Shown piece by piece: positions 9,710 through 54,014 of a stretch of 64,000 nt of DNA (its first letter is position 1; every line of letters begins with the position of its first letter). The position numbers and the translations under genes are program-made. The stretch is taken from the NCBI GenBank assembly GCA_965215015.1, contig OZ244042.1, positions 2,240,001-2,304,000 on the forward strand, in the 5' to 3' direction. The notes beneath the pieces are model-generated. The model was not told the DNA's origin. It did not search any database and saw only the letters and a list, made by a program, of their open reading frames with translations. This DNA is from Candidatus Poribacteria bacterium (lineage in GTDB: Bacteria > Poribacteria > WGA-4E > PCPOR2b).

Positions 9710-12313
9710 CTACTTGAGGATTACCATCCGCCGTAACACAGTATCATCGCCTGCGTGGAGTTGATAGAAGTAGACCCCACTTGCCACCGATTCTCCACTG
9801 TCGTTACGACCGTCCCAATACGCTGCCTTTGCCCGATCAGTGTAATACCCCGCAGCCTGATGCCCCAAGTCCAACCGACGCACCGGTGTGCCTTTTGTAT
9901 CATAAATGGTGAGTGTAACATCGACGGCGTGGGCGAGGCGATACGGTATCCACGTCTCCGGGTTGAACGGATTGGGATAATTTGGGAGTAGTGCGGTTTC
10001 GGCAGGAGTGAGCATAGCTAACAGTGCTTCGAGGTTAGCGATACCGCGCCGAAAGGTGAGCGAGCCGTCATCTGCCGTGGGCGCCATAGCAATCCATTGT
10101 TGAATCGTTTCAGGAGTGATGTGAACACCAATCGGTGTAGCGAGAAATGACCGGTGTCCTCTACGGACTACGGATGCTGCGGGGGGTGTTGTGTCATCAA
10201 AGTGTGCACTGACCGCAACTAGATCAAAAATGTTGACGACGCCATCGCTGTTAATATCTCCTAATCGTCCTCCTCCTGTTTGTCCAAACATTTCTGTGAC
10301 TATTGCTAAATCGAAGATATTTACGATACCATCTTGGTTGACATCATAGGCGGAGACCTTCGGCGGTGTATCCGCTGGAGGTGCGAGGTTCCACAGGAGC
10401 ACTGTACCATCCCTACTCCCGCTTGCGAGTGTGGTGCCATCCGGACTGAACGCTACACTAGTAACGTTAGATGTATGCCCTGTGAAGGTCGCTTTGAGCT
10501 GATGTGCACAAACCTCCCACAGTCTCACGGTGTGGTCCTCACTTCCACTTGCGAGTGTGGTGCCATCCGGACTGAACACTACACTGTTGATGCTGGCCGT
10601 GTGCCCGATAAGGGTCCCTTTGGACTGATTTGTAGAAACATCCCACAGCTGCAACGCGCCATCATTATTCCAATCCCCACTCCCACTTGCGAGTGTGGTG
10701 CCATCCGGACTGAACGCTACACTGTTGATAGGGCTCCTATGCCCCATGAGGGTGGCTGTGAGTTGTTTTGTCGCAACATCCCACAGTTGTATCTTATGAT
10801 CTCTGCTCCCGCTTGCGAGTATGGTGCCATCCGGACTGAACGCTACAGTTCTAACGCTGTGTGTGGCACCCATGAGGGCTGCTTTGAGGCGACCTGTATC
10901 TGCGTCCCACAGTCGTATTGTGATGTCTTGCTTCTGATTGCTAGTCCTGTTGCCTCCCCAACCTCCAGCAGTTGCGAGTGTGGTGCCAGCCGGATTGAAC
11001 GCTACACTTAAGATGGAGTTCGTGTGTCCTATAATGGTGGTTTTGAATTGTCCTGTATTTGTGTCCCATAACCGGACCCTGTTGTATCGTGAATGTGCAC
11101 TTGTGTTGTCGTAACCTGCCGTTGCCAGCGTGGTGCTATTCGGGCTGAACGCTATGCTGCTGACACCGACCGAATGCCCTCCAAGGATGGCTTTGCGGCG
11201 TCCTGTCCCTGTGTCCCACAGTCGAATTCTGTTGTTTGGCCGACCTCCCCCGGTCGCCAATGTGTTACCATCCGGACTGAACGCTATACTGCTAACACTG
11301 TCAGTATACTCCCTAAGGATGGTTTTCGGTTTCCACGTGATTGTTTCCCGCAACCACACCGTGTTATCCTCACTTCCGCTTGCCAATGTGTTGCCATCCG
11401 GACTGAATACTATACTTCTGACCCTCCCTGCATGCCCTGCGAGGGTGACTATAAGTTGTCCTGTGGCAACATCCCACAATCGTACCGTGTTATCCCAACT
11501 TCCGCTTGCCAGCGTTGTGCTATTCGGGCTGAACGCTACACTGAAGATTGGGCGTGTATACCCCGTGAGAGTCATGATGGACTGACCTGTTCGTGCATCC
11601 CACAACCTCACCGTGTTATCCCAACTTCCGCTTGCCAATGTGTTGCCATCCGGACTGAACGCTATACTGTTGATGGCGTCTGTATGTCCTGCAAGGGTGG
11701 CTACGAGCTGCCCTGTGGTAACATCCCACAGTCGTACTGTTTTGCCCCAATCTCCACTTGCGAGCATGGTGCCATCCGGACTGAACACGAGACTCCTGGC
11801 ATCGTCCAAATATTCTATAAAGGTGGTTTTGAGTTGCCTTGTGGCAACTTCCCACAACCGTATCGTTTGGTCCTCACTTCCACTTGCTATCGTGGTGCCA
11901 TCCGGACTGAACGCTATACTGTTGATGGCGTCTGTATGTCCTACGAGGGTAGCTTTGAGTTGCCCGGTGGACGCATCCCACAGCCGCACCATGTTGTCGT
12001 CCCTACTTCCTGTTGCCAGCGTGGTGCCATCCGGACTGAACACTACATTTGAAACCGAGGTAGCTCCTGTAAGGAGATTACGTTCTGTACCAGTATCGGC
12101 ATCATATATCCAAATCCCGATAGAGCTCACAACCGCCAGACGACTGCCATCGGGAGAATACGCTATCTCTCCGGTTATATGACCTTTACCCAAGCGTGTT
12201 TTAGTGCCTTCGGGTAAATTCCACTTGGTGTAGTCTTGGGCATGGGTGTTTGATAAGAATACGAGCGTTCCTAAAGAACAGAGCACAAGTATGGAAAATT
12301 GTGCTGTTTTCAT
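9710..12313 (-). CDS. Secreted WD40 protein (14 repeats) + dockerin-like domain + C-terminal FlgD-Ig/T9SS-CTD-like domain
   Basis: Signal peptide; 14 GH..V.FSPDG..LASGS.D..V.LWD units; DVNQDGIVNIFDL and DINSDGVVNIFDL; LLPNYPNPFNPETWIPY...SGVYFYQL tail. Confidence 0.93.
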   Translation of the reverse strand: MKTAQFSILVLCSLGTLVFLSNTHAQDYTKWNLPEGTKTRLGKGHITGEIAYSPDGSRLAVVSSIGIWIYDADTGTERNLLTGATSVSNVVFSPDGTTLATGSRDDNMVRLWDASTGQLKATLVGHTDAINSIAFSPDGTTIASGSEDQTIRLWEVATRQLKTTFIEYLDDARSLVFSPDGTMLASGDWGKTVRLWDVTTGQLVATLAGHTDAINSIAFSPDGNTLASGSWDNTVRLWDARTGQSIMTLTGYTRPIFSVAFSPNSTTLASGSWDNTVRLWDVATGQLIVTLAGHAGRVRSIVFSPDGNTLASGSEDNTVWLRETITWKPKTILREYTDSVSSIAFSPDGNTLATGGGRPNNRIRLWDTGTGRRKAILGGHSVGVSSIAFSPNSTTLATAGYDNTSAHSRYNRVRLWDTNTGQFKTTIIGHTNSILSVAFNPAGTTLATAGGWGGNRTSNQKQDITIRLWDADTGRLKAALMGATHSVRTVAFSPDGTILASGSRDHKIQLWDVATKQLTATLMGHRSPINSVAFSPDGTTLASGSGDWNNDGALQLWDVSTNQSKGTLIGHTASINSVVFSPDGTTLASGSEDHTVRLWEVCAHQLKATFTGHTSNVTSVAFSPDGTTLASGSRDGTVLLWNLAPPADTPPKVSAYDVNQDGIVNIFDLAIVTEMFGQTGGGRLGDINSDGVVNIFDLVAVSAHFDDTTPPAASVVRRGHRSFLATPIGVHITPETIQQWIAMAPTADDGSLTFRRGIANLEALLAMLTPAETALLPNYPNPFNPETWIPYRLAHAVDVTLTIYDTKGTPVRRLDLGHQAAGYYTDRAKAAYWDGRNDSGESVASGVYFYQLHAGDDTVLRRMVILK

Positions 12314-12350
12314 CAGTTGGATTCTCCTATATTGATTACGGGCCCCAATC

Positions 12351-14858
12351 CTACTTCAAAATGAGCATTTTCCGCGTTGCCGAATAATCTCCTGCGGACA
12401 GGCTGTAGAAGTAAAACCCGCTTACAACAGATTCTCCGCTGTTGTTACGACCGTCCCAATACGCCGCCTTTGCCCGATCGGTATAATAGTCCGCAGGTTG
12501 ATAACCTAAATTAAAGTGACGTACTACCGTCCCTTTTGTATCATAAATGGTGAGTGTAACATCCGCGGCGTGTGCAAGGCGATACGGTATCCACGTCTCC
12601 GGGTTGAATGGGTTGGGGTAGTTGGGCAACAAGGCTGTCTCCCGCGGTGGCAATGCCGCCAAGAGTTGTTTGAGGACGACAAGGCCGCGCCGATAGGCAA
12701 GCGAACCGTTGTCTGCTGCATGAGCCATATCAATCCATGCCTGAATTGTATCTCGGTTGAGATTCGACGAACCGCCTTTCTTCCCATTTTCGGGCGATAG
12801 GAATGCAATTGGGGCGGTGGGAATCATCGTTGCACTAAATACGCCAGCAACCTTGACGAGATCCAGAATGTCAACAACGCCATCTCCATTGACATCGGCA
12901 TTATTCTGCCCCATCTGTCCCAAGTTTGATCCAATGAGCATCAAATCCAAAATGCTCACCACACCATCGCGGTTGACATCTCCGGGTTTCGTTCTAGGGG
13001 TGAACTCCCATAGAAGCACCGTGCCATCATAACTCCCGCTTGCGAGCATAGTGCCATCCGGACTGAACGCTACGCTCCCGATACTGCCTGTATGCCCTAC
13101 AAGGGTGGCCTGAAGTTGCTGGGTAGTAACGTCCCACAGCCTCACCATTTTGTCCTGACCTCCACTTGCTATCGTGGTGCCATCCGGACTAAACGCGACA
13201 GTATAGATATCATACGAGTGTCCCGCGAGGGTGGCTTTGAGTTGCCCTGTGGCAATATCCCACAGTCCCACTGTTTTGTCCTGACTCCCACTCGCTATCA
13301 TGGTGCCATCCGGACTGAACACTATATCCCTGATAAAGGCTCTATGTCCGGTAAGGGTAGCTTTGTGCTCCCCCGTGCCCGGATCCCACAGTTGGATTGT
13401 ATTGTCTAAATCGTTAGCTGCGAGGAGGGTGCCATCCGGACTGAACGCGACACTCACGATATCTGCCCTTCTCCACATAAAGGTGGCGTGCTGTTGTCCT
13501 GTGGTAATATCCCACAGGCGTAACGTCCTGTCCCAGTATCCATTTCCAGTAGCAAGCATAGTGCCATCCGGACTGAACGCGACACTATTAACAGTGTACG
13601 TATGCCCGATAAGGCTGGTTTTAAATTGCCCTGCCGCAACCCCCCACAGTCGTACCGTGTAGTCTGCACTTCCACTTGCTAGTGTTCGACTATCCGGACT
13701 AAATGCTAAACTAGTGACCCGGGAGGTATGTCCAGTGAGAGTAGTTTTGGGGTTCCATGTCGCAACATCCCATAACTTCACCACCTTCCCACTCCCATTT
13801 GCGAACGTGGTGCCGTCCGGACTAAATGCTATTGTTGAACCACCGCCTGTATGTTCCGCGAAGATAGTTTTGAGTTGCCATGTTGTAGCATCCCACACCT
13901 GCACCTCACTGCCACTTGCACTTGTGAGTGTGGTGCCATCCGGACTGAACGCTAGACTGTCAATACTACCTGTATGTCTTATGAGAGTGGCTTTTAACTC
14001 TCCGCTTGTATGCCACAACCGTATCGTCTCGTCTTCACTCCCACTTGCCAGCGTTCGTCCATCCGGACTGAACGCTAGACTACTGACGTTGCTCGTATGA
14101 CCTGCAAGGGTGGCTATGGGCTGCCCTGTCCGTGCATCCCACAGCCGCACCGTGTCGTCGCCACCTCCACTTGCGACTGTAGTCCCATCCGGACTGAACA
14201 CGACACTTCCGACGCCGTTCTCATGTCCTTTAAGGGTGGCTTTCGTGTCTCCTGTGATTGTATCCCACAGCTGCACCGTGTCGTCTTGCCAGCCGCCTCC
14301 ACTTGCGAGCGTCGTCCCATCCGGACTAAACGCTAGACTACTGATCCAACGTGTATGCGCTACAAGCCTGGTTATGGGCTGCGCTGTCCGCGCAGCCCAC
14401 AGCTGGACTACTTTGTCCGAACCCCCACTTGCGAGCATGGTACCATCCGGACTAAATACTACACAATAGATACTGCCCTTATGCCCGGTGAGGACAACTT
14501 TGGGTTTCCATGTTGCAACATCCCATAGTCGCACCGTGGCGTCGTCCCAACCGCCTCCACTTGCGAGCGTCGTCCCATCGGGACTGAATGCAATACTTTC
14601 GATGTTCGACGTATGCCCCGTGAGCAGAGCGAGTTCTGTCCCACTGTGTGTATCGTACACCCAAATCCCGATAGCAGTCCCAACTGCCAAGACGCTTCCG
14701 TCCGGAGAATATGCTATATCAGTTATCCAACCTTTACCGAGGCGCGCTTTAGCTCCTTTGGGCAGATGCCATTGAGGGGAATCTTGGGCGAAGGTACTGG
14801 ACACAGACAAAAGAGAAACTAACAATAGGTTGAACCCAAAAAACCTACCCTTTTTCAT
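12351..14858 (-). CDS. Secreted WD40 paralog (14 repeats) + dockerin-like + FlgD-Ig/T9SS-CTD-like domain
   Basis: Start reassigned to MKKGRFF (AAGGAGAAGG RBS, signal peptide); 14 SPDG/SPDS repeats; GDVNRDGVVSILDL/ADVNGDGVVDILDL; same C-terminal domain. Confidence 0.93.
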   Translation of the reverse strand: MKKGRFFGFNLLLVSLLSVSSTFAQDSPQWHLPKGAKARLGKGWITDIAYSPDGSVLAVGTAIGIWVYDTHSGTELALLTGHTSNIESIAFSPDGTTLASGGGWDDATVRLWDVATWKPKVVLTGHKGSIYCVVFSPDGTMLASGGSDKVVQLWAARTAQPITRLVAHTRWISSLAFSPDGTTLASGGGWQDDTVQLWDTITGDTKATLKGHENGVGSVVFSPDGTTVASGGGDDTVRLWDARTGQPIATLAGHTSNVSSLAFSPDGRTLASGSEDETIRLWHTSGELKATLIRHTGSIDSLAFSPDGTTLTSASGSEVQVWDATTWQLKTIFAEHTGGGSTIAFSPDGTTFANGSGKVVKLWDVATWNPKTTLTGHTSRVTSLAFSPDSRTLASGSADYTVRLWGVAAGQFKTSLIGHTYTVNSVAFSPDGTMLATGNGYWDRTLRLWDITTGQQHATFMWRRADIVSVAFSPDGTLLAANDLDNTIQLWDPGTGEHKATLTGHRAFIRDIVFSPDGTMIASGSQDKTVGLWDIATGQLKATLAGHSYDIYTVAFSPDGTTIASGGQDKMVRLWDVTTQQLQATLVGHTGSIGSVAFSPDGTMLASGSYDGTVLLWEFTPRTKPGDVNRDGVVSILDLMLIGSNLGQMGQNNADVNGDGVVDILDLVKVAGVFSATMIPTAPIAFLSPENGKKGGSSNLNRDTIQAWIDMAHAADNGSLAYRRGLVVLKQLLAALPPRETALLPNYPNPFNPETWIPYRLAHAADVTLTIYDTKGTVVRHFNLGYQPADYYTDRAKAAYWDGRNNSGESVVSGFYFYSLSAGDYSATRKMLILK

Positions 14859-15706
14859 GAGAATCCTTCTCCTTTTTGAGGCGTCAGCTTGGGGGTGTAT
14901 AACTTTTAAGCAGATTTGAGTCTCTTTAGGACTCAATGGGAGCAATTGGGCGGGGTTGGCTACTGCACGTATGGTTTCACCTAGGACAAACCCGGTAGAA
15001 ATAACCCCCTGTGGCTTTCTATCAATTTTTGTGCCAAACATCTGTTGGCAACACACAGCACAGTCAAAACGATTTGGGGATCTTCCTAACCGACGCATCT
15101 CATCGTTAGACCGAACAGGGGGGGCACCTGTGGAGTTAAGGGACTGGTTGTGGATTTACAACCCATAGAAAGTAGCGTTTAAACCGTCTTAAAATAGGGA
15201 CGCATTTTGCTTGCAGATCAGCAAGGGATTGCCTGCCCTTGTGCATACCGGCCGTTGCTTTTAACCTCAAGCGCACAAAGTGTCTAAATAGTTGTTAGAG
15301 GGATTGTATCCAATTGGAGTGAGGATTTGACCGATTTGTTCGGAGGCTGGAGGAGGATGGGTGAAAAGTTCAGTTTCTCTGAGATAATACATGTCGCCCC
15401 ACAAGGAGTATGGATGTGGGAGGTAGGTTGGATTGAACCGTTCAAATTTTGAACATCACTGTTTTATAAATGGACAGAGTGAAAACTAATACCCAATCAA
15501 TGCACCGATTATCAAGCGTTGGATCTCACTAGAATTTGTGGGATTTCAAGGTGAATAGGGCCGGCAATCTAAGGAGGAGCTACCTGGTGTATTTTATGAG
15601 TATCGTTCAACTCAACCTACGTGCTGATGAGATTGCCCTATCGTTATAGTTTTTTGGTTATGGACGTTGCGTTCTAATGATGATGGGTTAAGCTAGCTGA
15701 ATCCAA

Positions 15707-17646: not shown

Positions 17647-19620
17647 TTAGCTTGCCGTAAAAAGACCTTCAATTTCCCGTAGTAGTTTTCGCGCCCCCGC
17701 TACAGCGTTGGAGGCTCCTTTCATCTTTTTTGAAATCGTTAAAATCCTATAGCAATAGTCGCAAGATAGACTGAGATTTCCTGCGGCACGGGCATTTTCT
17801 GCAACATTGAAATAACAGATTGTTGTAACTGATAAACTTTCATTCGCCTCCTCCCATAGGTTGGCATGAGCGTAATGGTCTGCTGAAAGCGTGTATAGTC
17901 TACCGGCGTCAATCCAACTCTGTTGTCTTTCAAGCAAATTTGCCTGTATGGCATAGTAGGTCCCAGCTTCCTGGGCACACTGTCGCGCACGATTGTAACG
18001 ACGAGCGGCTGTGTAGGCAAGCCTTGCCCGTGCGTAGCAATCTGCGCCCGATTCCCAATTTTCGGATACAATGAAGCTTTCCGCAGCTTTCCTATAAAAT
18101 TCTCCCAGTTTTTTGTACTCCGTTCGACTCCGTCGACTTTTTCCCTTTTGTGCATATTCCTCAGCTGATTGACGAATCTGAGCAGCAATTCTCTCATAGG
18201 GACTTTGAACCACCTCATGGAGTTTTCGCAGAATGAATTCTGGAGCAGTTTCCTGGAAATTGAGTGGTTGAAATGTCAAATCTGAACCGGTGTTACCGTC
18301 TGTGAGAAATCCCCCTGAACCCACGGGAGCAGGGCTCTCGCTGGATTCACTAGGAGGGAATTGCCTATTAAACCAGTCTCTGAGCTCAGATATCTCGTCA
18401 ACTGGCAATTGATCAATCACCTCAACTACTTCTTTTGTTGTCGAAAGTGATTTGGGGGAAATCATCAAATCCGATAAATGCCGAAAGATCCAATCTGCTT
18501 TTTTGGTTGCTTGCATACTGCTCAAGTAGAGGCGGTGGGCTTGCTGCATTTCTTGCAATGCCTGCTGAGCCTGTGGGGCACCGATGAATTGAATCGCTTG
18601 ATCATAGTGTATATTGACTTGCTCTTCAAGTTTAAGCTGTTTCTGTTTTTCCGCTGCCGCCTTTTGTACCCCAGAGACTTCCAATTCGATTTTCTCCGCT
18701 GCCTCGGCAGAAAGGCGTAAATTCTTTCTGTGTTCAGATAGCGTTGCACCTCGTATTGCTAGATTTGATTGGCTTGTTATTGTTTCCCGTACAGCCTCTG
18801 TATACCATTTTTCACGAATACGATCCAAATCATTATACAACTCTGAAGCGGTTTGATACCGTGCCTGCACATCTCGATGTAACACTCTCTGTAAAATCTC
18901 GCGCACATTGTCAGGTAGTTTGTGGTCGAATTCAATTTCTTCGCTCTGTTTTCTCACCTGAATTTCATCTTGGGTTTTGCCGCGAAAGGGAAATTTCCCC
19001 ATAAACATTTCGTAGAGGATGAGCCCTGTTGAGTAGAGATCCGCCCGATAATCGTAATTTCCCTCATACTGTTCAGGTGCCATGTACCTCCGCGTCCCGG
19101 TGATTGTTCCCGCATAATCGGTGGTTGCTTCAAGGATACGGGCTACGCCGAAGTCAGATATCTTTGCTATCTGATCAGAAGTCAACAAGATATTCTGAGG
19201 CTTGATGTCTCGATGGATAATGTTCTGTTCATGGGCAGCAATAAGCCCCCGGCAAATATCGAGCGCAATATTCATTGCTAAACTAGAATCAGGAGGCTTC
19301 CTTGTCAGTAATTGCCGCAAACTGGGGCCGTCAATGTACTCCATAACGATATAAGCAACGTACTCATCATCGCCAGGCTCAACGGTATGGATGGAAACGA
19401 TATTGGAATGTCCCCAATTCCGTCCCATCGCGCTCAATTCGGTAAGCAGGTAACGCATCCGTCCTGTGGGGTAAATTGATTTAGGTAACACTTTGATCGC
19501 AACAGTACGATTAGTGAACTCCTCCTTCGCTCGAAAAACGGAGGCAAAGCTACCGTTGTTAATCAGTTTTTCAATACGATATTTTCCTAAGACCAATCCG
19601 TTTATCTGCATATACACCAT
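17647..19620 (-). CDS. Hanks-type Ser/Thr protein kinase with C-terminal helical (TPR/SNAP-like) repeats
   Basis: GSFASV, VAIK, HRDIKPQN, DFG, YMAPE, DLYSTG; C-terminal A.CY..A / A..Y..SA helical repeats; no TM segment seen. Confidence 0.9.
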   Translation of the reverse strand: MVYMQINGLVLGKYRIEKLINNGSFASVFRAKEEFTNRTVAIKVLPKSIYPTGRMRYLLTELSAMGRNWGHSNIVSIHTVEPGDDEYVAYIVMEYIDGPSLRQLLTRKPPDSSLAMNIALDICRGLIAAHEQNIIHRDIKPQNILLTSDQIAKISDFGVARILEATTDYAGTITGTRRYMAPEQYEGNYDYRADLYSTGLILYEMFMGKFPFRGKTQDEIQVRKQSEEIEFDHKLPDNVREILQRVLHRDVQARYQTASELYNDLDRIREKWYTEAVRETITSQSNLAIRGATLSEHRKNLRLSAEAAEKIELEVSGVQKAAAEKQKQLKLEEQVNIHYDQAIQFIGAPQAQQALQEMQQAHRLYLSSMQATKKADWIFRHLSDLMISPKSLSTTKEVVEVIDQLPVDEISELRDWFNRQFPPSESSESPAPVGSGGFLTDGNTGSDLTFQPLNFQETAPEFILRKLHEVVQSPYERIAAQIRQSAEEYAQKGKSRRSRTEYKKLGEFYRKAAESFIVSENWESGADCYARARLAYTAARRYNRARQCAQEAGTYYAIQANLLERQQSWIDAGRLYTLSADHYAHANLWEEANESLSVTTICYFNVAENARAAGNLSLSCDYCYRILTISKKMKGASNAVAGARKLLREIEGLFTAS

Positions 19621-19922
19621 CCTCGACCCAAGTTTCGACCGATAGGTGGATTCCTAGTTGTTTATCAAGCTTCGTTGCTGCGCGGCGTACGTTGGATTAA
19701 TCCGTGAAGCAATCTATTCTCTACATCCCATCCGTTCTTGGGCCTGAACTTGGGAAACTCATTACTAGTGTGCTGACATTTTGCTGTCGCCAATCCCGCA
19801 AACGCTGTAAGTAGGTCGAGACTCATAGGTCGACAAAACACCAGACACGGTTGCGCGACACACCGGGTATTGGGGTTACCCCTACGGCGGTACCAAGTTA
19901 TCTCCAGTGTATCAGATCCAAG

Positions 19923-19963
19923 ACTCTCGGAACGGAGATTGGTTCAATTTGTCAAATATCAAC
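19923..19963. repeat. Dispersed repeat/IS-end-like sequence (copy at 33966-34006; partial matches near 40665 and 28527)
   Basis: ACTCTCGGAAC(G/A)GAGAT..GTTCAATTTGTCAAATATCAAC shared between loci. Confidence 0.6.
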
Positions 19964-20071
19964 AGAACCTGGCTGGATATGGTAGATTGACAGGTTAGCA
20001 CAAAACCACTAAGCTGTCAATATACAATATGCAACTGTGCATGTATGCAAAAGGTAAGACTCACAGAGCCA

Positions 20072-20719
20072 TTAATCTGCCTTGGCGGCTTGCACAGCTT
20101 CTATTAACTTTTTCGCTTTCTCTGTCAGGAGATCAAATCGTCCATCAGCAATTACCTGATTATTGACGAGAGTGCTCCCCACACCAAGTGCGGCTGAACC
20201 TGCCTTGATAAATTCTCCGGCGTTATCAACACTCACGCCTCCGGTGGGGATCAGTGGAATATGCGGTAAAGGTGCCTTTACGTCTTTGATGTAGCTTGGT
20301 CCCACCCCACTTGACGGGAAAACTTTTACATAGTCTGCTCCGGCTTCCCATGCAGCCAAAATCTCCGTCGGGGTAAACGCGCCCGGCATCACGATTTTAC
20401 TGTATCGATTGCAAATTTCGATAACATCCGGTTTCGTCACAGGACTGACAACAAACTCCGCACCTGCGAGCATCGCTGCCCGCGCGGTTTCGGCATCGAG
20501 CACCGACCCAACACCTACTAGCACTTCTTCGCCGTATTGTGCGGCGACATCACTAATAACGCTTAACGCATTTGGGGTTGTCATCGTGACTTCAATTAGA
20601 TCGACACCGCCGGCTTTGATTGCTGCTGCAACCTCTATTAATTCAGCGGAACTATTCGCACGAATGATGGCGACGACCCCGCAGGATTCGACCCGTTGCA
20701 TCTGTTCCAGTTTAGTCAT
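20072..20719 (-). CDS. eda: KDPG/KHG aldolase
   Basis: VVAIIR, EVTMTTP, GAEFVVSP, PGAFTPTEI, VKVFP, PTGGV; start at MTKLEQ behind GAGGT. Confidence 0.93.
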   Translation of the reverse strand: MTKLEQMQRVESCGVVAIIRANSSAELIEVAAAIKAGGVDLIEVTMTTPNALSVISDVAAQYGEEVLVGVGSVLDAETARAAMLAGAEFVVSPVTKPDVIEICNRYSKIVMPGAFTPTEILAAWEAGADYVKVFPSSGVGPSYIKDVKAPLPHIPLIPTGGVSVDNAGEFIKAGSAALGVGSTLVNNQVIADGRFDLLTEKAKKLIEAVQAAKAD

Positions 20720-20814
20720 ATTTACCTCGATCACGATAGGTCATTGAAAATTCTCCAGAATACTTAACACCTTACTTTTTTGTTGCTATTTAGTCATGTG
20801 TCCAGTAGCTTCCC

Positions 20815-21528
20815 TTACAAAATACCAAGCGGGGGTGTTACGACAATTTCGTCCGTGACCACGCCAGCCGGTTGCATTGCAACAAAAAGAATGGTCTCCG
20901 CAACATGCTCCGGTTTCAACATCAAATTCGGGTCAGGGTGTCCCGCAATCTCAGCCCAGAATGGCGTATCAACCGATCCGGGGGAGACTGCCGTGACACG
21001 GATATTCGCGCCTCTGATTTCCTCCGCCAGAACCTTCGTAAACGCTAGTGCCCCTGCCTTTGCTGCACAATACGCGCTCGATGCTTTGAAGGGAACTTTC
21101 GCAGCAATCGACAGCACATTGATAATTTGACCGGATTGACGTGTCAGCATAGAAGGGAGCACGTATTTGGAGCAAAGATACGTACTTTTGAGATTAGAGG
21201 CAACCACTTGCGCCCATACTTCCGGATCCGAATCGGCGATCATCTCGAAGACACCGATCCCTGCATTGTTCACAAGGAGGTCGATTTGATCATAGGTCTC
21301 TAGTGTTTGATTGACTAGGGTTTCCACTGCTTCTGCCTGTGTTACATCTGTCGGTACAATGAGGGCTTCTCCACCCTCTGTGCCTATGAGATTGGCAGCT
21401 GTTTCGAGGTCATACTGTGTGCGTGCTGCGAGGACAACTTTTGCTCCTGCCCGCGCAAACGCCAAAGCGGTGGCGCGACCGATGCCCCGCGATGCTCCTG
21501 TTATAATTGCAACTTTGTCCTTCAACAT
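20815..21528 (-). CDS. SDR oxidoreductase, probable sepiapterin reductase-like
   Basis: TGASRGIG, NNAG, YCAAK, PGSVDTPFW; directly downstream of PTPS and folE. SDR call is firm, substrate is inferred. Confidence 0.75.
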   Translation of the reverse strand: MLKDKVAIITGASRGIGRATALAFARAGAKVVLAARTQYDLETAANLIGTEGGEALIVPTDVTQAEAVETLVNQTLETYDQIDLLVNNAGIGVFEMIADSDPEVWAQVVASNLKSTYLCSKYVLPSMLTRQSGQIINVLSIAAKVPFKASSAYCAAKAGALAFTKVLAEEIRGANIRVTAVSPGSVDTPFWAEIAGHPDPNLMLKPEHVAETILFVAMQPAGVVTDEIVVTPPLGIL

Positions 21529-21572
21529 CTCGATTCCCTTCAAGCTGTCCTGTGTTTATGACCAAACCGCAT

Positions 21573-22166
21573 CTAAATACATCTCATGAACTCTGCCCGG
21601 GTGGAGCTTTTATCTCGAAACTCTCCGAGCATCACATTGGTCATCGTTTGCGAGTGCTGTTTCTGTACGCCACGAACCATCATGCACATATGCTGTGCCT
21701 CCATGACAACAGCGACCCCAGCCGGATTCAACACTTTTCGTAATGCCTCCGCAATCTGCCGCGTCAATCTCTCTTGCACCTGTAGGCGGCGAGCGAACAT
21801 ATCCACAATTCGTGGAATTTTACCGAGCCCAATGATTTTTTTGCGAGGAATATACCCAACATGGCACTTGCCAAAAAATGGTAAAATATGATGCTCACAG
21901 AGACTATAATACTCAATGTCTTTGACGATGACCATTTCGTCGTACTCTTCCTCGAAGATAGCATCGTTCAAAATTTCCTCGACATTTTGGTGGTATCCCT
22001 GTGTCAAAAACTGAAGGGCTTTCGCTGCACGTTGCGGTGTCCTCAAGAGTCCCTCTCTTGTCAAATCTTCGCCAATACCCTCCAACATCTGCTCATAGAT
22101 ATATGTCAGTTTTGAATCGGTGGTAGCTGGTCCGTTGTCAATTGAGTCTGCGTGATAAATTTTCAT
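21573..22166 (-). CDS. folE: GTP cyclohydrolase I
   Basis: [38 protein letters not shown]. Confidence 0.97.
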
Positions 22167-22169
22167 TAA

Positions 22170-23003
22170 CTAAATTCCGTCTCCGTAGTAATCAAAGTGA
22201 TTCTTGGGGGTTTCTCTCAATCGAAGTTGATGTAACTGAATTGGCTTCAAATTCGGTTCAATAATTTCCCAGAGCACCTTTACAAAGTTCTCAGAGGTTG
22301 GGTTGAGATTCTCAAACTCAGGCGTGTCCAAGTTAAGATGCTTATGATCAAATCGTTCGTAGACCTGCTTCTGAATCGTTTCATCAAGATGAGATAGATC
22401 GGCAACCATGCCGGTTCTGGGATCCACCTCACCTTTTATTGTTACTTCAAGTGCGTAGTTATGCCCATGACCGTAGAAATTGTTACACTTTCCGAAGATT
22501 TCTTGGTTTTCTGCATCGCTGAGTTGCGGACTGTGCAATCGGTGTGATGCACTGAATTCGTAGACTTTCGTGAGATAGACCATTTGCCCCTCTCCATAAT
22601 AGTCAGCAAACAGGGTTGAATCCTCATACAACCTGATTCGATGTAGGATTGTCCCTTTCAGATGCGGTTCAATCGCATACCAAATTTGAATCGCTATATT
22701 CTCGCTTGAAGGTTGCAGATGTGGGTTGCTCGCGAAGGTAGGGTGTTGTACGTTGATGTGCTTGTGATCGTAGTAGCCAACAACTTCCGCCCTGAGAACC
22801 CGGTCCAGATCTGTGATATTGATGACCATCCCGTGCTCGGGGTTAAGTCTCCCTTTAACTGTTGCTTCTAAGACATAGTTGTGACCATGGCTATTTGGAT
22901 TGGAGATTGCTCCAAACAGGGCGTAATTCTCTGCATCGCTGAGTTCAGGAATACGATAGTAGTGCGAGGCTTCAAATGCAATTTGACGCGTAAGGTAGTG
23001 CAC
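22170..23003 (-). CDS. Tandem two-domain 6-pyruvoyl-tetrahydropterin synthase (PTPS/QueD family)
   Basis: Domain 1 FEASH..AISNPNSHGHNY..SSENIA; domain 2 FSASHRL..FGKCNNFYGHGHNY..PTSEN; GTG start. Confidence 0.92.
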   Translation of the reverse strand: MHYLTRQIAFEASHYYRIPELSDAENYALFGAISNPNSHGHNYVLEATVKGRLNPEHGMVINITDLDRVLRAEVVGYYDHKHINVQHPTFASNPHLQPSSENIAIQIWYAIEPHLKGTILHRIRLYEDSTLFADYYGEGQMVYLTKVYEFSASHRLHSPQLSDAENQEIFGKCNNFYGHGHNYALEVTIKGEVDPRTGMVADLSHLDETIQKQVYERFDHKHLNLDTPEFENLNPTSENFVKVLWEIIEPNLKPIQLHQLRLRETPKNHFDYYGDGI

Positions 23004-23087
23004 GATGAAATTCCTTATTCGTGAGACGAGATGCGCTGTTTAGCCCTCACATCACACCGGTTTTTGACACTTGTGGTTCCCTTACTG

Positions 23088-23366
23088 TTACAGCCTAGCA
23101 ACTTCGTTGTCTACCGTTTCGAGCTGCACACGCATTACCCACTCCCCACCGCCGCGAATATGTACATGACGCTTTTTCAGCCATTCTATAAGGGTATTTC
23201 GATCGGGTGCATCCCATTCGCAGACCATTCGACCGAGGACTGTGTCACACTGCACTTTTAAGCTCTTGACGCCGTCGCTCTCCTCTTCAATAAATCGCTT
23301 GACGAGCCTTTCCACGTCTTGTCGTGTCATGCAGGCAATGATATGAGCGGAAACAAATCTAGGCAT
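23088..23366 (-). CDS. Small DUF4242-like protein
   Basis: MPRFVSAH start, 92 aa, GRMVCEWDAPD motif typical of this family. Confidence 0.6.
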   Translation of the reverse strand: MPRFVSAHIIACMTRQDVERLVKRFIEEESDGVKSLKVQCDTVLGRMVCEWDAPDRNTLIEWLKKRHVHIRGGGEWVMRVQLETVDNEVARL

Positions 23367-23415
23367 ATTTGACTCCAATATGGCACTCATCTCTGAGTGC
23401 AGCAGAGTAGAGAGA

Positions 23416-24477
23416 TTAGTCGAGTAATTCCTGACAATTCCAATCCTGAAACTGAATTTGCCGAAGTTTGAATCGGTACGAGCTTTGCCAACCAATCGGA
23501 GGAAAGAGGGTGGCAACCACCGAGAGCCGGTAGTCATAGACACAATCTTCCCAGCTATAGCCTGAAACACCGCCATTGACCAGGCCATTGTAATAGTACC
23601 GCAACAGATCCTTCTCGATGCCGCGCCGTCGTTGTGGAGCCCCCCCTCCGACTAAGTAACAGAGATCATACGGTCCAATCCCTCGTTTATAGGTTTCCCA
23701 ATCGAAAAAATAAAGCCCATCTGTTTCCGGCTTTTTCGGATAAAAGAGATTCCAATTATGCAGGTCACCGTGTAGAAATGTCAAAGCCTCGTTATCTTTG
23801 ATGCGTGCGGCATATAAACGTTGCCAACCGTTGATGGCGTGATGTGCAAAATCAAACATCTCTTGTGGGAATTTGTCCTGAGCCTTGTCAGCAAATTGAG
23901 GAAGCAGCGTCTCTCTCCAATAGTCGCAATAGGTCCGTATAATTTCGGGTGTGGCGGCATCCGCCATACGGAGCGGGCCTCCTTTTCCTCGCAGAAAATC
24001 GGCTTGTGAAATTCGCGGATGCTCCCACCATTGCGTATGGAACTTCAACAATTCATCAATAATCTGTTTGTAGAGAGCGATGGTGAACCCTTCCGCTTTG
24101 GGAGGGGTTTCGTTGTGGGTCGCAGTAGCATCTTCAAAGATGAGATAACATTGACGGGCATTACGGTTATAGTCGAAGTCGTAGCATTGGAAAACCGGTG
24201 GATCGGGCATCTGGGCAGCGATTTCGTTGAAGAAGACCGATTCAGCAACACCGCCCCCAAACCAACCAGCCTTATAATTCTTGAAGATTAGATCGGTATG
24301 CAGCTGATTTTCTGATTCAGTGGAATAGTTCACTTTCAACCGTGTAAAAAAGGCAGCGGTTGATTCAAATGTCTCGCCAAGCTGTATATCAGTTACGGCG
24401 TGCTGTGAAAGGTGCCCGTTCTGTTGGAATCGCGTCGTCAACCATTGTGGTGTAATCTGCTCTGCACTGTCAATCAA
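23416..24477 (-). CDS. Aminoglycoside-phosphotransferase/ecdysteroid-kinase-like small-molecule kinase
   Basis: ITPQWLT N-terminus, LIFED, LHGDLHNWN (Brenner motif), FFDWE, GPYDLCY. Confidence 0.85.
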   Translation of the reverse strand: MIDSAEQITPQWLTTRFQQNGHLSQHAVTDIQLGETFESTAAFFTRLKVNYSTESENQLHTDLIFKNYKAGWFGGGVAESVFFNEIAAQMPDPPVFQCYDFDYNRNARQCYLIFEDATATHNETPPKAEGFTIALYKQIIDELLKFHTQWWEHPRISQADFLRGKGGPLRMADAATPEIIRTYCDYWRETLLPQFADKAQDKFPQEMFDFAHHAINGWQRLYAARIKDNEALTFLHGDLHNWNLFYPKKPETDGLYFFDWETYKRGIGPYDLCYLVGGGAPQRRRGIEKDLLRYYYNGLVNGGVSGYSWEDCVYDYRLSVVATLFPPIGWQSSYRFKLRQIQFQDWNCQELLD

Positions 24478-24554
24478 TTAATTCCCTAGCTCTCTATGGA
24501 TTAGAGTAGTAGAGACGCAAATTTGTGTCCCTACTAGCTCCGTATTATTATTAG

Positions 24555-25403
24555 CTACCCCTTTGCGATAGGTGCGCCGACAAGATTGCCCCACTCTGTC
24601 CAGCTGCCATCGTAGTTGCGTACCTTTTCGTAACCCAAAAGGTACTTCAGCGCAAACCATGTGTGCGAGGAGCGTTCTCCAATACGGCAGTAAGCAACCG
24701 TCTCTTTGTCCGAATCTACCCCCGCACCTTCGTAGATTTCCTTCAACTCGTCGTAGGATTTGAAGGTCCCGTCCTCGGCGACTGCGGTTGCCCACGGAAT
24801 ATTTGCTGCGCCCGGAATGCGTCCCGGACGTTGGGCCGTTTCAGGCAACCCCGGAGGCGCGATAATCTCACCGGAAAACTCAGCCGGGGAACGGACATCC
24901 ACAAGGTTGACCACTCCCTGATCGAGCGTTGGCAAGACATGATCTTTTGTCGCCCGCACATTGTCATCGGGAAATTTAGCTTTGTAGTCGGTGGCAGCAG
25001 GAGAAGGTGTATCCGTGACTAACTCACGACCCTCATCAATCCACTTCTGACGGCCACCATTCATCACTTTCAGCTTGCTTTCATCATGCCCATAGTACCG
25101 GAATTGCCACAGGGCATAAGTAGCAAACCAATTGTTATTGTCCCCATAGAAGATTATTGTGGTATCGTTACTGATGCCAGAATCCTGGCACAATTGCTCG
25201 AACTGATCTTTTGTTAAAATATCGCGCCGCACTTGGTCACACAACTGGGTTTGCCAATTGAGGCCGACAGCACCGCTGATGTGTCCTTCATCGTAAGCCG
25301 CTGTATCCACATCAACTTCTAATAAACGGATGCCCGCGTCGCCACCATGCTCGGCAACCCAGTCGGTGGTTACTAACACTTCTGGGTGGGCGTAGTCTGC
25401 CAT
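24555..25403 (-). CDS. Two-domain thiosulfate sulfurtransferase (rhodanese)
   Basis: YAHPEVLV, GHISGA, DVRSPAEF, active-site YCRIGERS, YDGSWTEW. Confidence 0.95.
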   Translation of the reverse strand: MADYAHPEVLVTTDWVAEHGGDAGIRLLEVDVDTAAYDEGHISGAVGLNWQTQLCDQVRRDILTKDQFEQLCQDSGISNDTTIIFYGDNNNWFATYALWQFRYYGHDESKLKVMNGGRQKWIDEGRELVTDTPSPAATDYKAKFPDDNVRATKDHVLPTLDQGVVNLVDVRSPAEFSGEIIAPPGLPETAQRPGRIPGAANIPWATAVAEDGTFKSYDELKEIYEGAGVDSDKETVAYCRIGERSSHTWFALKYLLGYEKVRNYDGSWTEWGNLVGAPIAKG

Positions 25404-25830
25404 AATGTAGAACCTCCTACCTTAATTTGAAAATTGATATACTCCCTCGTCTGAGCGGAAGATATGGATGATGCCCCATTCCTACTTGAGGTGTGGTGGA
25501 ATGGTAGGAAACGCAGATCCCAATATCGTTGCGTTCCCGATAGATTGGGACTAAGAAGCGTTCCAACCCTTACGGAATCGTAGAAGATACCTAGAACTAG
25601 CGCGCTATAGTCCCGGCTCAATCCGCCCGGAACGTTGCGTTATAGTCCGAGTGTTTTCTGTAATCTTCCCGCTTTGGGCAGAAACAGAACCGGCATCTCC
25701 ATTCTGTACAAGCAATCGTAGCATATTTTCGCTAGAAATACAAGTTTTTTGATAGGATGGAAGGAGGAGAGGACGACAAAAAGGAGTTAAACTGAGGAAA
25801 TGGGCTTTGATGGCAAGATTTGATTAAATA

Positions 25831-51129: not shown

Positions 51130-51219
51130 CGTTCATGTTAAGAAGTCATGCAACAGCAACCGAGTTTTTTCGGAAAAACTCGGTTGCTGTTACTGTTTTG
51201 CATTCTTTTTACATGAGCC
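51130..51219. mobile_element. MITE family B with 8-bp target-site duplication
   Basis: Termini (C)GTTCATGTTAAGAA / TTCTTTTTACATGAGCC; TAAATCTT on both sides (51122-29, 51220-27); internal 18-bp inverted repeat. Confidence 0.8.
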
Positions 51220-51257
51220 TAAATCTTATAATTGCGTTTTGTAAAGGAGAACTCTCT

Positions 51258-54014
51258 ATGAAAATTAGACCTACCCTGTATGTGGGCCTAGGAACAACAG
51301 GGATGAAAATCCTCAACCATCTCCGGCTACTCAATTATAACGAATATGGTTCGGTGGAGTACCCTATTTTCCGGTATATATCAATTGAAACCGATACCAG
51401 CAACGATGGAATTGTGTCTGAAATTGATGGCGCCCTCAATTACATTCGGTATGAAAGGGGAGTGCCCACTGTTTATGATAGTGGACCCCGCCCAGAATCG
51501 GCCGGAAATAAAGTTATCCACACAACTATTCCGGCGACGGAGCCCATTCGGAATACGATAGATCCCAATCATTCATCGTACAACAGACATCTTGACGCGT
51601 GGTTAGATCCAAAAATATTGGATCTTGATGCAACAACGCGGGCCGGTGGTGCGGGTAATCTCCGAATGGTAGGAAGACTCTCACTCTGGGAAAACTGGGA
51701 TAAGCAGAGTCGTGTCCAACAAAACCTCCGGGAAGCCTATGACGCCGTTTGGGAAGACAGCAATAAGAAAAAAGCGGTGCAGGTTTTAAATAACCATTTT
51801 GGCAAGGAAATTACCGTTGATGAAGAGAATCGAAACGTTTTTATCGTTGGTACCCTCTGCGGTGGTACATGTAGCGGAATGCTGCTTGATATTGCTTACT
51901 ACTTCCGACACATTGGAAACGAAGATACCAAAATTTACGGTATATTTACCATGTACGATGAGGCACTTGCCTTAGAGGCACCAAAGATTCAATTGGCCAA
52001 CTGCTATGCCACCCTCGTTGAACTTGATTACTATAAACGGAGTGCCACAAAATATCGTGTCACGCTGCCTACCGGTCCCGCTATCAGCACAAACAAGCCC
52101 CCATTTGATGTAGCTACCTTCGTTTCAGCAACCAATATGGTAAGTGAGCGATTTATCAACGAAAATGGGCGGTTCGTTCAAGACGAGCTGGATCGGATGG
52201 TCGCCTCTGACCTCTTTGTAAGAAGCTTCGATGTTGATGCCCTGATTGATGCGGACCTCGTCAACACCCCCGGATTTGATGATCGATTTGAAAATGTGCG
52301 AGAAGACAATCAATTTGTCCAGTACATGTTCAGCTCGGGACTAGAAAAGATATGGTTTCCCAAAAATCAAATCGTTAAAGCAGCGGCTACGAAATTCATT
52401 GAAAAACTTCATTCAAAATGGAAAGAGATTCGTCCGGCAGATACCTCCGACCCTAACACGCTATTTGACAGAATTTTAGATGACATTAAAGATGGCCTCG
52501 TCAAGACACGGACTGGTTCGCTTGATACTCTGTTAAAGAGCGAAATTGCTACGCTTAATTCTAACACGGAGGCCTATAGTTGCCTTGAAGCTTTAGTCCC
52601 TGGGGGAAAACATTACAGGCTAATTGATGACAACAGCAAAGATTGTTTTCAGCACGCTGTGGAAAGCCTTCGGGGAGCATCTCAAACGGTGCTCAGTCAA
52701 GTTGATGAGTTAATTCAGTCTGAGTTGGGAAAACATAATTCGGACAAACTCGCATCTGATGGTGAGATACGCGAACGCGTGAAGCAGGCCGAATTGGGTG
52801 CACAGGATCCAATTGGAGGATTTTTCGGAAGAATTAGAGGCAGAACCGAACTCAACAACAGGAAGTTCAGAGATGGAATTTCTGAACAGCAAACCCAATT
52901 ACAGAATCAGTTGAGGAGCTACTTCGTTAAACGGGTCCTTACCGACCTCCGTGGCGAAATTCAGAATCTTATTGAGGATGGGAATAACGAAAGAAGTACG
53001 ATTGAAACAAAGTTTGCTGATGCTAAAAGGTATTCTAAGGTTGACGAAACCAGTCCGGAAGTAATAGAGGTAGCAAACCTCTTGAGTCAAAATTGCCAAG
53101 GTATGCTTGACACACAAGCACAAGTTGATAAACTGATTCGTATTCTGCGTCTCTCAGAAAGTGGATGTTTTCATTGGCACATTGCGAATCGATTGAGGGA
53201 GTTTTTTAATGACATCGTTGCCAGATTAACTCCGAATTTTGGCACACAGGCTGTCAGAAAATCCGGTCCCTATCAAGAATTCACGCACAGTTATATGGGA
53301 AATTACAGATTGAGGTTAGAACGCCCCGGAGGCGAAACGAGGCTTTTTCGATTCTTGCTCGCTAGCCGGCAACCGGAAAATGCCTCCAATCTTATGTTGG
53401 GAACCCAATCTAGAGAAGAAGAATTTTCTATACCGAATCTCAGTGTTCTTTATCAGATGGAAGTCGGCTTTACCGCTGATGACCTCCGCGTTGCGAAGCG
53501 ACTCAAGGAGGAGTATGATTCTTATATAGAAAGGGGTGATCCTATTCATATTGATAGGGATCCGACCCAGTTCAACCCAGACGCAATTCGCGCTACAATT
53601 GCAGCTGGCAACCGGATAGGAGAAATTCAGAGGGACTCAAAAGCTCTCAGAGAACTACTACCTAGGATCCGAGAGATATATGAAAATCGGTTTCAATATG
53701 TATCGCCCAACGGGAACATTAACGGAAATTCGCCACTAGGCGAATTGGAAGTTAGAATTCCTGACAGGGCAGGATACGAAAAAACTTTCAGAGTCGGGGT
53801 AGACAATGAAGAGTTGGCGCAAGATGAGGAGCGGTACGATTTTTTTATTAACACAACCCGGGCCGATTTTGGTAGTCTCCTAGATGAAAACCCTTCTCTT
53901 CCAGTGATTATTAATGGCTTCAATCAACAGATCGAATCCACCCTACGGAGAGAAAGCGAAAAATTCTATGAAAATTATATTGGTTTAGTGCGCGAGCACC
54001 ACAGATCCCATTAG
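51258..54014 (+). CDS. FtsZ/tubulin-like GTPase (Tubulin_2/FtsZl1-type) with long helical C-terminus
   Basis: TLYVGLGTTG, SIETD, GAGNLRMVGRL, signature GTLCGGTCSGMLLD, ANCYATLVEL, PFD; start at MKIRPT behind AAGGAG. Confidence 0.88.
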   Translation: MKIRPTLYVGLGTTGMKILNHLRLLNYNEYGSVEYPIFRYISIETDTSNDGIVSEIDGALNYIRYERGVPTVYDSGPRPESAGNKVIHTTIPATEPIRNTIDPNHSSYNRHLDAWLDPKILDLDATTRAGGAGNLRMVGRLSLWENWDKQSRVQQNLREAYDAVWEDSNKKKAVQVLNNHFGKEITVDEENRNVFIVGTLCGGTCSGMLLDIAYYFRHIGNEDTKIYGIFTMYDEALALEAPKIQLANCYATLVELDYYKRSATKYRVTLPTGPAISTNKPPFDVATFVSATNMVSERFINENGRFVQDELDRMVASDLFVRSFDVDALIDADLVNTPGFDDRFENVREDNQFVQYMFSSGLEKIWFPKNQIVKAAATKFIEKLHSKWKEIRPADTSDPNTLFDRILDDIKDGLVKTRTGSLDTLLKSEIATLNSNTEAYSCLEALVPGGKHYRLIDDNSKDCFQHAVESLRGASQTVLSQVDELIQSELGKHNSDKLASDGEIRERVKQAELGAQDPIGGFFGRIRGRTELNNRKFRDGISEQQTQLQNQLRSYFVKRVLTDLRGEIQNLIEDGNNERSTIETKFADAKRYSKVDETSPEVIEVANLLSQNCQGMLDTQAQVDKLIRILRLSESGCFHWHIANRLREFFNDIVARLTPNFGTQAVRKSGPYQEFTHSYMGNYRLRLERPGGETRLFRFLLASRQPENASNLMLGTQSREEEFSIPNLSVLYQMEVGFTADDLRVAKRLKEEYDSYIERGDPIHIDRDPTQFNPDAIRATIAAGNRIGEIQRDSKALRELLPRIREIYENRFQYVSPNGNINGNSPLGELEVRIPDRAGYEKTFRVGVDNEELAQDEERYDFFINTTRADFGSLLDENPSLPVIINGFNQQIESTLRRESEKFYENYIGLVREHHRSH

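Follow-up and report, generated by a model that had tools for sequence, protein, structure and literature searches.

The window analysed here comprises 64,000 nt (C1:2240001-2304000) of the closed genome of a Candidatus Poribacteria bacterium (G000; 5.94 Mb, 98 % complete), and harbours three adjacent genes that appear to form a conserved pterin module. These encode a two-domain 6-pyruvoyl-tetrahydropterin synthase (PTPS), a GTP cyclohydrolase I (FolE) and a short-chain dehydrogenase/reductase (SDR). From the identities of the three proteins, their motifs and the linkage of their genes, we consider it likely, with a probability of roughly 0.6, that the module makes a biopterin-type product. 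The pathway is of an already known kind, namely that of bacterial clusters combining a PTPS-II, a FolE and a Chlorobium-type reductase, and it is not a dedicated side branch in this lineage, as FolE is the only GTP cyclohydrolase I of the cell. PTPS–FolE–SDR adjacency exceeds chance, and the module is universal in the sampled Poribacteria and fixed in the whole sponge-symbiont lineage.

All three open reading frames (ORFs) lie on the minus strand in the same orientation. The first, at 22170..23003, specifies a bimodular protein of the PTPS-II type (277 aa from a GTG start; two PF01242 matches), and is followed by the gene for FolE (type IA; 21573..22166; 197 aa; TIGR00063) and by that for the SDR (20815..21543; 242 aa from a TTG start), a classical NADP-type enzyme that is a candidate sepiapterin or 6-pyruvoyl-tetrahydropterin reductase of the Chlorobium tepidum type. 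At the first junction, inspection of the DNA reveals the TAG stop of the PTPS gene, then TTA, then the ATG of FolE, giving a gap of 3 bp. The distance from the FolE stop to the SDR start is either 29 bp, to the TTG of the longest ORF, or 44 bp, to an ATG at 21528 (237 aa) that has a Shine–Dalgarno-like stretch, GAAGGGA, upstream; because this ribosome-binding stretch is better than that of the TTG, the 44-bp gap is the likelier. An earlier reading of this locus, made from the sequence alone (hereafter the sequence-only reading), had described three tightly spaced, co-oriented genes with gaps of 3 and 44 bp, and the coordinates and junction DNA agree with this. Promoter and terminator scans of positions 19600-25600 returned counts within chance, and boundaries of the operon were not obtained from them.

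The tandem PTPS is matched by PF01242 in two stretches (209.7 bits in the Pfam scan). Domain 2 (22170..22586, minus strand; approximately residues 140–277 plus the stop) carries FGKCNNFYGHGHNY and reads GKCNNFYGHGHNY, with the loop GKCNNFYGHGH conforming to CxxxxxHGH, and with DHKH and TSEN also present; it is the catalytic domain. Domain 1 (22587..23003, minus strand; approximately residues 1–139) reads FGAISNPNSHGHNY; here the corresponding loop is AISNPNSHGH, in which the catalytic Cys is absent and Ile occupies its place. C173 of domain 2 is the single cysteine in the whole 277-aa protein. Despite the loss of Cys, this partner domain retains the HGH pair, DHKH and SSEN. In an alignment with rat PTPS (1b66) the motifs SASHRL, GHGHNY, DHK.L and T(S/T)EN line up, and both domains keep them. 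The other active-site motifs of animal PTPS are the His before the loop, the Asp–His pair and the Glu of T-x-E-N. Domain 2 had been judged animal-like from its sequence, and this is borne out, since residues 143–274 match 1b66 with 122.5 bits; more broadly, the domain scores 112–122 bits against the rat, Caenorhabditis elegans and human PTPS structures vs 51–53 bits against Escherichia coli QueD chains.

The assignment of the protein to a PTPS class rests on the spacing of the loop. As stated in excerpted text of PMC5041015, CxxxxxHGH denotes PTPS-II (biopterin), CxxxHGH denotes QueD and ExxHGH denotes PTPS-III, in agreement with the CX5HGH vs CX3HGH distinction on which the sequence-only reading had relied. 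The PTPS-II signature is found in domain 2 and not in domain 1; the QueD signature is found in neither, and is carried by six comparison proteins. A PTPS-III-like bypass of FolB was also considered and rejected, as neither domain has the Glu of ExxHGH and FolB is present in the genome.

With regard to the wider family, a scan of species genomes returned 595 confirmed PTPS relatives, and all locus counts given here cover the best 80 loci. These comprise 24 poribacterial loci (22 so titled and 2 labelled 'uncultured bacterium' with the same synteny), 26 from Acidobacteriota and 18 from Armatimonadota, with the rest from Bacillus, Domibacillus, Herpetosiphonaceae, NC10, Planctomycetota/Phycisphaerae, Gemmatimonadota and three unclassified sources; there are no cyanobacterial loci among these best 80. 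The two-domain architecture is kept in 16/16 aligned homologues, and in 24/24 poribacterial loci domain 1 lacks the Cys and domain 2 has the Cys motif. Armatimonadota possess a Trp at the catalytic Cys place of domain 1. The tandem PTPS also has split forms: NC10 and many Acidobacteriota encode each domain by a gene of its own, the two being neighbours in different frames (e.g. G041:C13:35849-36645, G045:C10:93223-94062 and many acidobacterial loci), and both genes may, and often do, carry Cys. A 48-row tree gathers the 41 tandem-domain rows, without exception, into a single clade (support 97/94), which leaves out six CxxxHGH proteins and a degenerate third copy (P0121, described below). The domain-1 rows of all phyla cluster together within this tree (support 89/98), so that the pair is an old duplication.

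Linkage of the three genes is close to invariant in Poribacteria. FolE directly follows the tandem PTPS in 24/24 poribacterial loci, and in 23 of them the SDR comes next, with orientation and position unchanged; the remaining locus has its SDR 4.7 kb further on. Amongst the 56 loci from other phyla, FolE is directly after PTPS in 34 and an SDR is next in 20 (11 from Acidobacteriota, 6 from Armatimonadota and 3 unclassified), where next means directly after PTPS, or after FolE where FolE follows PTPS. This recurrence of the SDR across phyla, in the same order and on the same strand, is the main evidence that it works with PTPS.

The SDR itself matches adh_short (Pfam, 201.3 bits) and displays the classical TGxxxGxG form of the Gly-rich motif. 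Its best NCBIfam model is PRK07454, at 220.6 bits, below the cut-off of 234; PRK07454 was considered as a cyanobacterial family, but was passed above cut-off by 1 of 14 control genomes, with no indication of which, and was not used. Counting residues from the TTG start (5 fewer from the ATG), the protein aligns colinearly, and with identical numbering, with the C. tepidum sepiapterin reductase 2bd0 from residue 78 to 240, with 55/163 positions identical by a hand count of the match line. The sequence-only reading had based this resemblance on the strings SSAYCAAK and PGSVDTPFW and on a Chlorobium-like C-terminus, all of which are present and align with 2bd0. S145, Y158, K162, F99 and W196 coincide with residues of 2bd0. 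The last two of these are, according to an excerpt of PMC7520308, indispensable for substrate binding in the C. tepidum enzyme. In an alignment of PTPS-linked SDRs (made without row L054), S145, Y158 and K162 are invariant in 22/22 proteins, as is W196 (22/22, from four or more phyla), and a G-x-L C-terminus is held in common; F99 is kept in Poribacteria (with Tyr in one row) and in Armatimonadota. When the C-terminal 99 residues, which form the substrate-binding part, are taken alone, 2bd0 is the top PDB match, with 53.6 vs 52.0 bits for the next (a margin of 1.6).

A control within the genome sets this SDR apart from its numerous relatives. When the SDR family profile was run against the 4338 ORFs of at least 180 aa, with membership set at E ≤ 1e-20, 60 SDR ORFs were recovered, of which the window SDR scored 343 bits and the next best 215. 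It is also the only one of the 60 in which the columns of F99 and W196 are both filled by F and W, although many of the 60 rows are not aligned out to column 196, such that W may be undercounted.

Taken together, these features suggest the following route. FolE would convert GTP to 7,8-dihydroneopterin triphosphate, from which domain 2 of PTPS, by way of its Zn site and Cys173, would eliminate the triphosphate and, by rearranging the side chain, form 6-pyruvoyl-tetrahydropterin. Domain 1, which lacks the Cys, may serve as a structural or substrate-binding partner in the oligomer. The Chlorobium-type SDR, with NADPH, would then reduce the side-chain keto groups to yield an isomer of tetrahydrobiopterin (BH4), and a share of the PTPS flux would leave as 6-carboxy-tetrahydropterin (CPH4) for QueE.

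A number of results weigh against a biopterin-type product. The tandem PTPS clears the NCBI QueD model TIGR03367, with 122.2 bits vs a cut-off of 89.25 (the two domains being summed), and one source (NCBI) names a PTPS homologue 6-carboxytetrahydropterin synthase. For the full-length SDR, 2bd0 scores 131 bits and takes rank 6, with FabG-type reductases at 141 bits; for residues 75–242 it is beaten by a Thermus SDR of unknown function (100.8 vs 96.6 bits); and a profile of the 22 SDRs ranks it sixth, at 201 bits vs 215–228 for the top structures. The likeness to the C. tepidum enzyme thus stands for the catalytic triad, F99 and W196, and does not extend to its being specifically the closest full-length relative. 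The animal sepiapterin reductase model TIGR01500 is failed (68.5 bits vs a cut-off of 206.55), with the window SDR still its best match in the genome (next, 66.5 bits). F99 is not conserved in acidobacterial PTPS-linked SDRs, and 36/56 non-poribacterial loci are without an SDR directly downstream, six of which have less than 1.5 kb of sequence there. Finally, aromatic amino-acid hydroxylase (PAH, Biopterin_H) is absent from the genome and was recovered in 0/41 genomes of a phylum sample (38 of the class and 3 from outside it), nitric oxide synthase (NOS) was not found in the genome, and the GT2 and GT1 genes that accompany the module elsewhere have nothing closely homologous here, the best matches being 28 %/54 bits and 27 %/71 bits.

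The lack of a hydroxylase, of NOS and of a homologue of the linked glycosyltransferases leaves the pterin product without a known user here. That no BH4-using enzyme is encoded nearby had been remarked upon in the sequence-only reading; nothing suggestive is seen among the 52 ORFs of the window, and the genome-wide absence of PAH and NOS carries this further. Two genes for pterin-4a-carbinolamine dehydratase do occur in the genome (G000:C1, 498930-499196 and 4301879-4302157). They were considered as a sign of a hidden hydroxylase and set aside, as the neighbours of one include a ThiF-rhodanese (MoeB-like) gene and those of the other are pyrD/pyrB-type genes, with no link apparent. A pteridine glycosyltransferase was likewise sought; the GT1 protein encoded next to the NC10 pair is a poor match to 5zer, the solved BH4 glucosyltransferase (34.7 bits, at about rank 24), and was not accepted as such. 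Possible roles for the product are those of a redox-protective pterin, whether glycosylated or free, of a signal, and of a compound supplied to the host. Literature searches found no discussion of Poribacteria together with tetrahydrobiopterin or queuosine.

FolE is well supported by TIGR00063 (259.6 bits vs a cut-off of 181.6), and the other PF01227 match in the genome is QueF. FolE2 was not found in this closed genome, leaving the window FolE as its sole GTP cyclohydrolase I of either type. It is therefore a housekeeping gene for folate and queuosine as well, and the description of the locus as a complete, dedicated BH4 operon was overstated.

The queuosine pathway presents a gap at the step of QueD. 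QueC and QueF score above cut-offs in the genome and QueE is also present, at 0.72, 0.58 and 5.67 Mb, respectively; the PTPS cluster is at 2.26 Mb, and clustering of PTPS with que genes was not observed. The only COG0720 proteins encoded are the tandem PTPS and the 128-aa P0121 (G000 4336932-4337246; L007:10879-11265), a degenerate protein of the PTPS fold situated 5 kb from FolB. As a candidate QueD, P0121 was rejected: its REKPHNH loop is without Cys, it has no Asp–His pair, it scores 34 bits with the QueD model vs a cut-off of 89, and it is present in only 10/38 class genomes. Across the phylum sample, the tandem PTPS is found in 38/38 class genomes, and a CxxxHGH QueD or high-scoring single-domain copy in 0/38, this closed genome included. 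Of the three genomes outside the class, two have a single copy in a 129-aa frame (146–151 bits, CERLHGH) and no tandem, and the third (88 % complete) has no such PTPS/QueD copy. QueC is over its cut-off in 41/41 genomes, and QueE is in all 38 of the class. The sequence-only reading had raised the matter of a separate queD and folB in this genome; folB is indeed present, and a canonical queD is absent even though QueC, QueE and QueF are encoded.

QueE is of some interest in its own right, being a 590-aa ORF (G000:C1:5673694-5675466; L101:3695-5467) whose N-terminal (approximately residues 31–69) and C-terminal (400–590) QueE parts flank an insert of about 330 aa. This stretch matches the intein-containing radical SAM model NF038136 (residues 61–400), and occurs in 3/3 sampled genomes of this genus; the remaining 35 class genomes lack it, their two QueE parts being contiguous.

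Since no COG0720 protein of the genome other than the tandem PTPS has a catalytic Cys, this enzyme most likely also yields CPH4 for QueE, QueC and QueF, and the second supply to queuosine probably holds throughout the class. In excerpted text of PMC9894224, the QueD reaction first eliminates the triphosphate to reach a sepiapterin-like intermediate, which then loses acetaldehyde; by this chemistry, release of some CPH4 by a PTPS-II is plausible. With no canonical QueD despite QueC, QueE and QueF, CPH4, which the sequence-only reading had set against its own proposal as a product of PTPS, is therefore probably at least part of what the enzyme makes. One may go further, tentatively and at somewhat less than even odds, and regard the bimodular PTPS-II as a natural dual-outlet enzyme, passing 6-pyruvoyl-tetrahydropterin to the Chlorobium-type reductase and CPH4 to QueE, with the canonical QueD displaced class-wide. 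A published case of PTPS-II acting as QueD was not found in the literature searched, which included PMC9894224, PMC5615194 and PMC5041015 and did not cover Phillips et al. 2012.

The same gap invites a stronger proposition, in which the tandem PTPS is simply the QueD of the lineage, PTPS and FolE start queuosine synthesis, the SDR acts elsewhere or does no more than adjust the redox state of pterins, and biopterin is not a product. This would account for the absence of a CxxxHGH QueD from the closed genome and from every class genome while QueC (41/41), QueE and QueF persist, for the complementary distribution whereby two of three out-class genomes carry a single CxxxHGH copy and no tandem, and for both the cleared QueD model and the NCBI name. 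We nevertheless regard it as unlikely, since the motif is CxxxxxHGH rather than CxxxHGH, the tandem clade is separate from the CxxxHGH proteins, the PTPS gene is distant from queC, queE and queF, and an SDR bearing the Chlorobium substrate-binding residues stays next to PTPS across phyla. Furthermore, three other phyla (Acidobacteriota, Armatimonadota and Bacillus) have a distinct CxxxHGH copy alongside the tandem or paired PTPS; its distance from QueC is 85 bp, 96 bp and about 0.95 kb in the Chthonomonas, Bacillus and Terriglobia genomes, and true QueD copies adjoin QueC in G042 and G044. Conversely, one NC10 genome possesses the PTPS pair and lacks both QueC and a third copy. From this coexistence, and from the NC10 pair without QueC, it follows that the tandem family's own job is not that of QueD.

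Other possibilities concern the SDR. It might, like PruA, FolM or PTR1, reduce the pteridine ring or be a pterin reductase of some other sort, serving a signalling or otherwise non-biopterin pterin, e.g. one controlling cyclic di-GMP (c-di-GMP) enzymes. Agrobacterium has a pterin-dependent c-di-GMP pathway, and the order SDR, HAMP-GGDEF-EAL protein, tandem PTPS in Bacillus and Domibacillus would fit such a role, as would the generic overall PDB similarity of the SDR and the RibD_C reductase-like genes that follow it in three loci. This is decidedly improbable given that no GGDEF/EAL gene is linked in Poribacteria, that the PTPS product is already a tetrahydropterin, needing reduction of the side chain and not of the ring, and that the side-chain reductase of Chlorobium has the same F99 and W196. 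In addition, FolM and PTR1 have the signature TGxxxRxG, whereas the Gly motif here is the classical TGxxxGxG. It is also conceivable, albeit very remotely so, that the SDR is an unrelated neighbour and that only PTPS and FolE are functionally coupled. SDRs are abundant (this genome alone has 60 such ORFs), more than half of non-poribacterial loci (36/56) are without an adjacent one, and promoter and terminator scans gave nothing above chance; set against this are its constant orientation and position in 23/24 poribacterial loci, the 20 further loci in three or more other phyla, the invariant W196 and G-x-L C-terminus shared by PTPS-linked SDRs, and the distance between 343 and 215 bits in the family profile. 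A biopterin-type product from PTPS, FolE and the SDR thus remains the favoured explanation.

Comparison with characterized systems places the module within familiar biochemistry. A dual-domain PTPS of Synechococcus sp. PCC 7942, involved in BH4 synthesis, was described by Kong et al. 2006 (FEBS Lett 580:4900; via excerpted text of PMC5041015), and the same excerpt credits Synechococcus PTPS-II with canonical activity in vitro. Two-domain bacterial PTPS-II is therefore already known. Likened by description, the Synechococcus and poribacterial proteins are both two-domain bacterial polypeptides of the PTPS-II motif class, and the poribacterial one would likewise act after FolE towards BH4; Synechococcus, however, has a separate PTPS-I (QueD-type) copy, which this genome and 38/38 sampled relatives are without, and domain 1 here has no catalytic Cys. 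The sepiapterin reductase of C. tepidum (Chlorobaculum; 2BD0), which makes L-threo-BH4, is similarly a classical SDR of about 240 aa, colinear from residue 78 to the C-terminus, with Ser145-Tyr158-Lys162, Phe99 and Trp196 at the same positions, a similar C-terminal tail and the best PDB match to the substrate-binding half (C-terminal 99 aa). It differs in that identity is about one third (55/163) and that several unrelated SDRs score equally or better at full length, and no linked pteridine glycosyltransferase was found here.

The animal BH4 pathway (GCH1, PTPS and SPR) would share with the module the same three reaction types in the same order, and animal PTPS has the same GKCNN..GHGHNY loop as domain 2 (122 bits with rat, 112 with human). 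In contrast to animals, PTPS here is tandem-duplicated with one Cys-less domain, the reductase falls outside the animal SPR family (TIGR01500), and the genome is without hydroxylase or NOS. QueD (PTPS-I), for its part, has the same fold, Zn site and substrate, and the tandem protein passes the TIGR03367 cut-off and is the sole candidate for this step in the genome; yet it differs in its Cys spacing of CxxxxxHGH, in its separate clade, in the absence of queC/queE clustering, and in the coexistence of the tandem family with true QueD in other phyla.

Beyond the Poribacteria, the genes surrounding PTPS vary by phylum. In Acidobacteriota (loci L043-L097), a divergent peroxiredoxin lies upstream of the PTPS pair in 25/26 loci, and a GT2 glycosyltransferase is directly upstream on the same strand in 19/26, which hints, as a lead only, that the acidobacterial pterin may be glycosylated, redox-linked or both. 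In Armatimonadota, an ABC permease is upstream of PTPS in 16/18 loci, and GT1 genes are near PTPS in NC10 and two unclassified genomes. The row of SDR, HAMP-GGDEF-EAL protein and tandem PTPS in Bacillus and Domibacillus (L041:2623-6819 and L042:2487-6813) may be a pterin-linked c-di-GMP signalling unit. None of these neighbour genes typical of other phyla has a close counterpart beside the poribacterial cluster or elsewhere in the genome.

Within the window, a small conserved ORF (23088..23366, minus strand; 92 aa from MPRFV) lies 84 bp upstream of PTPS and is possibly co-transcribed. It has a tblastn match just upstream of PTPS in 21/24 poribacterial loci; a Pfam scan gave no family for it, and its look-alikes in a language-model Atlas are SCO4226-like (PF14026; score 0.93), which is a lead only. 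On the other side, 80 bp downstream of the SDR, is a gene identified by family scans as a KDPG/KHG aldolase (Eda; 20072..20734, minus strand). This neighbour is outside the conserved module, as Eda adjoins the SDR only in the two closest relatives (L018 and L019), with about 3 kb of other DNA between the two in most other poribacterial loci that hold Eda. Further afield, the window encodes a neighbouring pair of WD40-repeat proteins (867 and 915 aa; 9710-15098, minus strand) and, at 51135-54014 on the plus strand, a protein of 959 aa that contains a Tubulin_2 (PF13809) domain.

Among bacteria, cyanobacteria and green sulfur bacteria are known to synthesize biopterin, for purposes that beyond pterin glycosides are unclear. 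A sponge-symbiont lineage in which the module is fixed, and which has no known BH4 user, therefore offers a clean case for asking what bacterial biopterins do, with redox protection, signalling and host provisioning as the candidate roles at stake. The absent QueD, meanwhile, amounts to a testable prediction on catalytic promiscuity in the PTPS/QueD family. It also carries a warning for annotation, in that neither '6-carboxytetrahydropterin synthase' nor 'PTPS' alone may fit the tandem protein.

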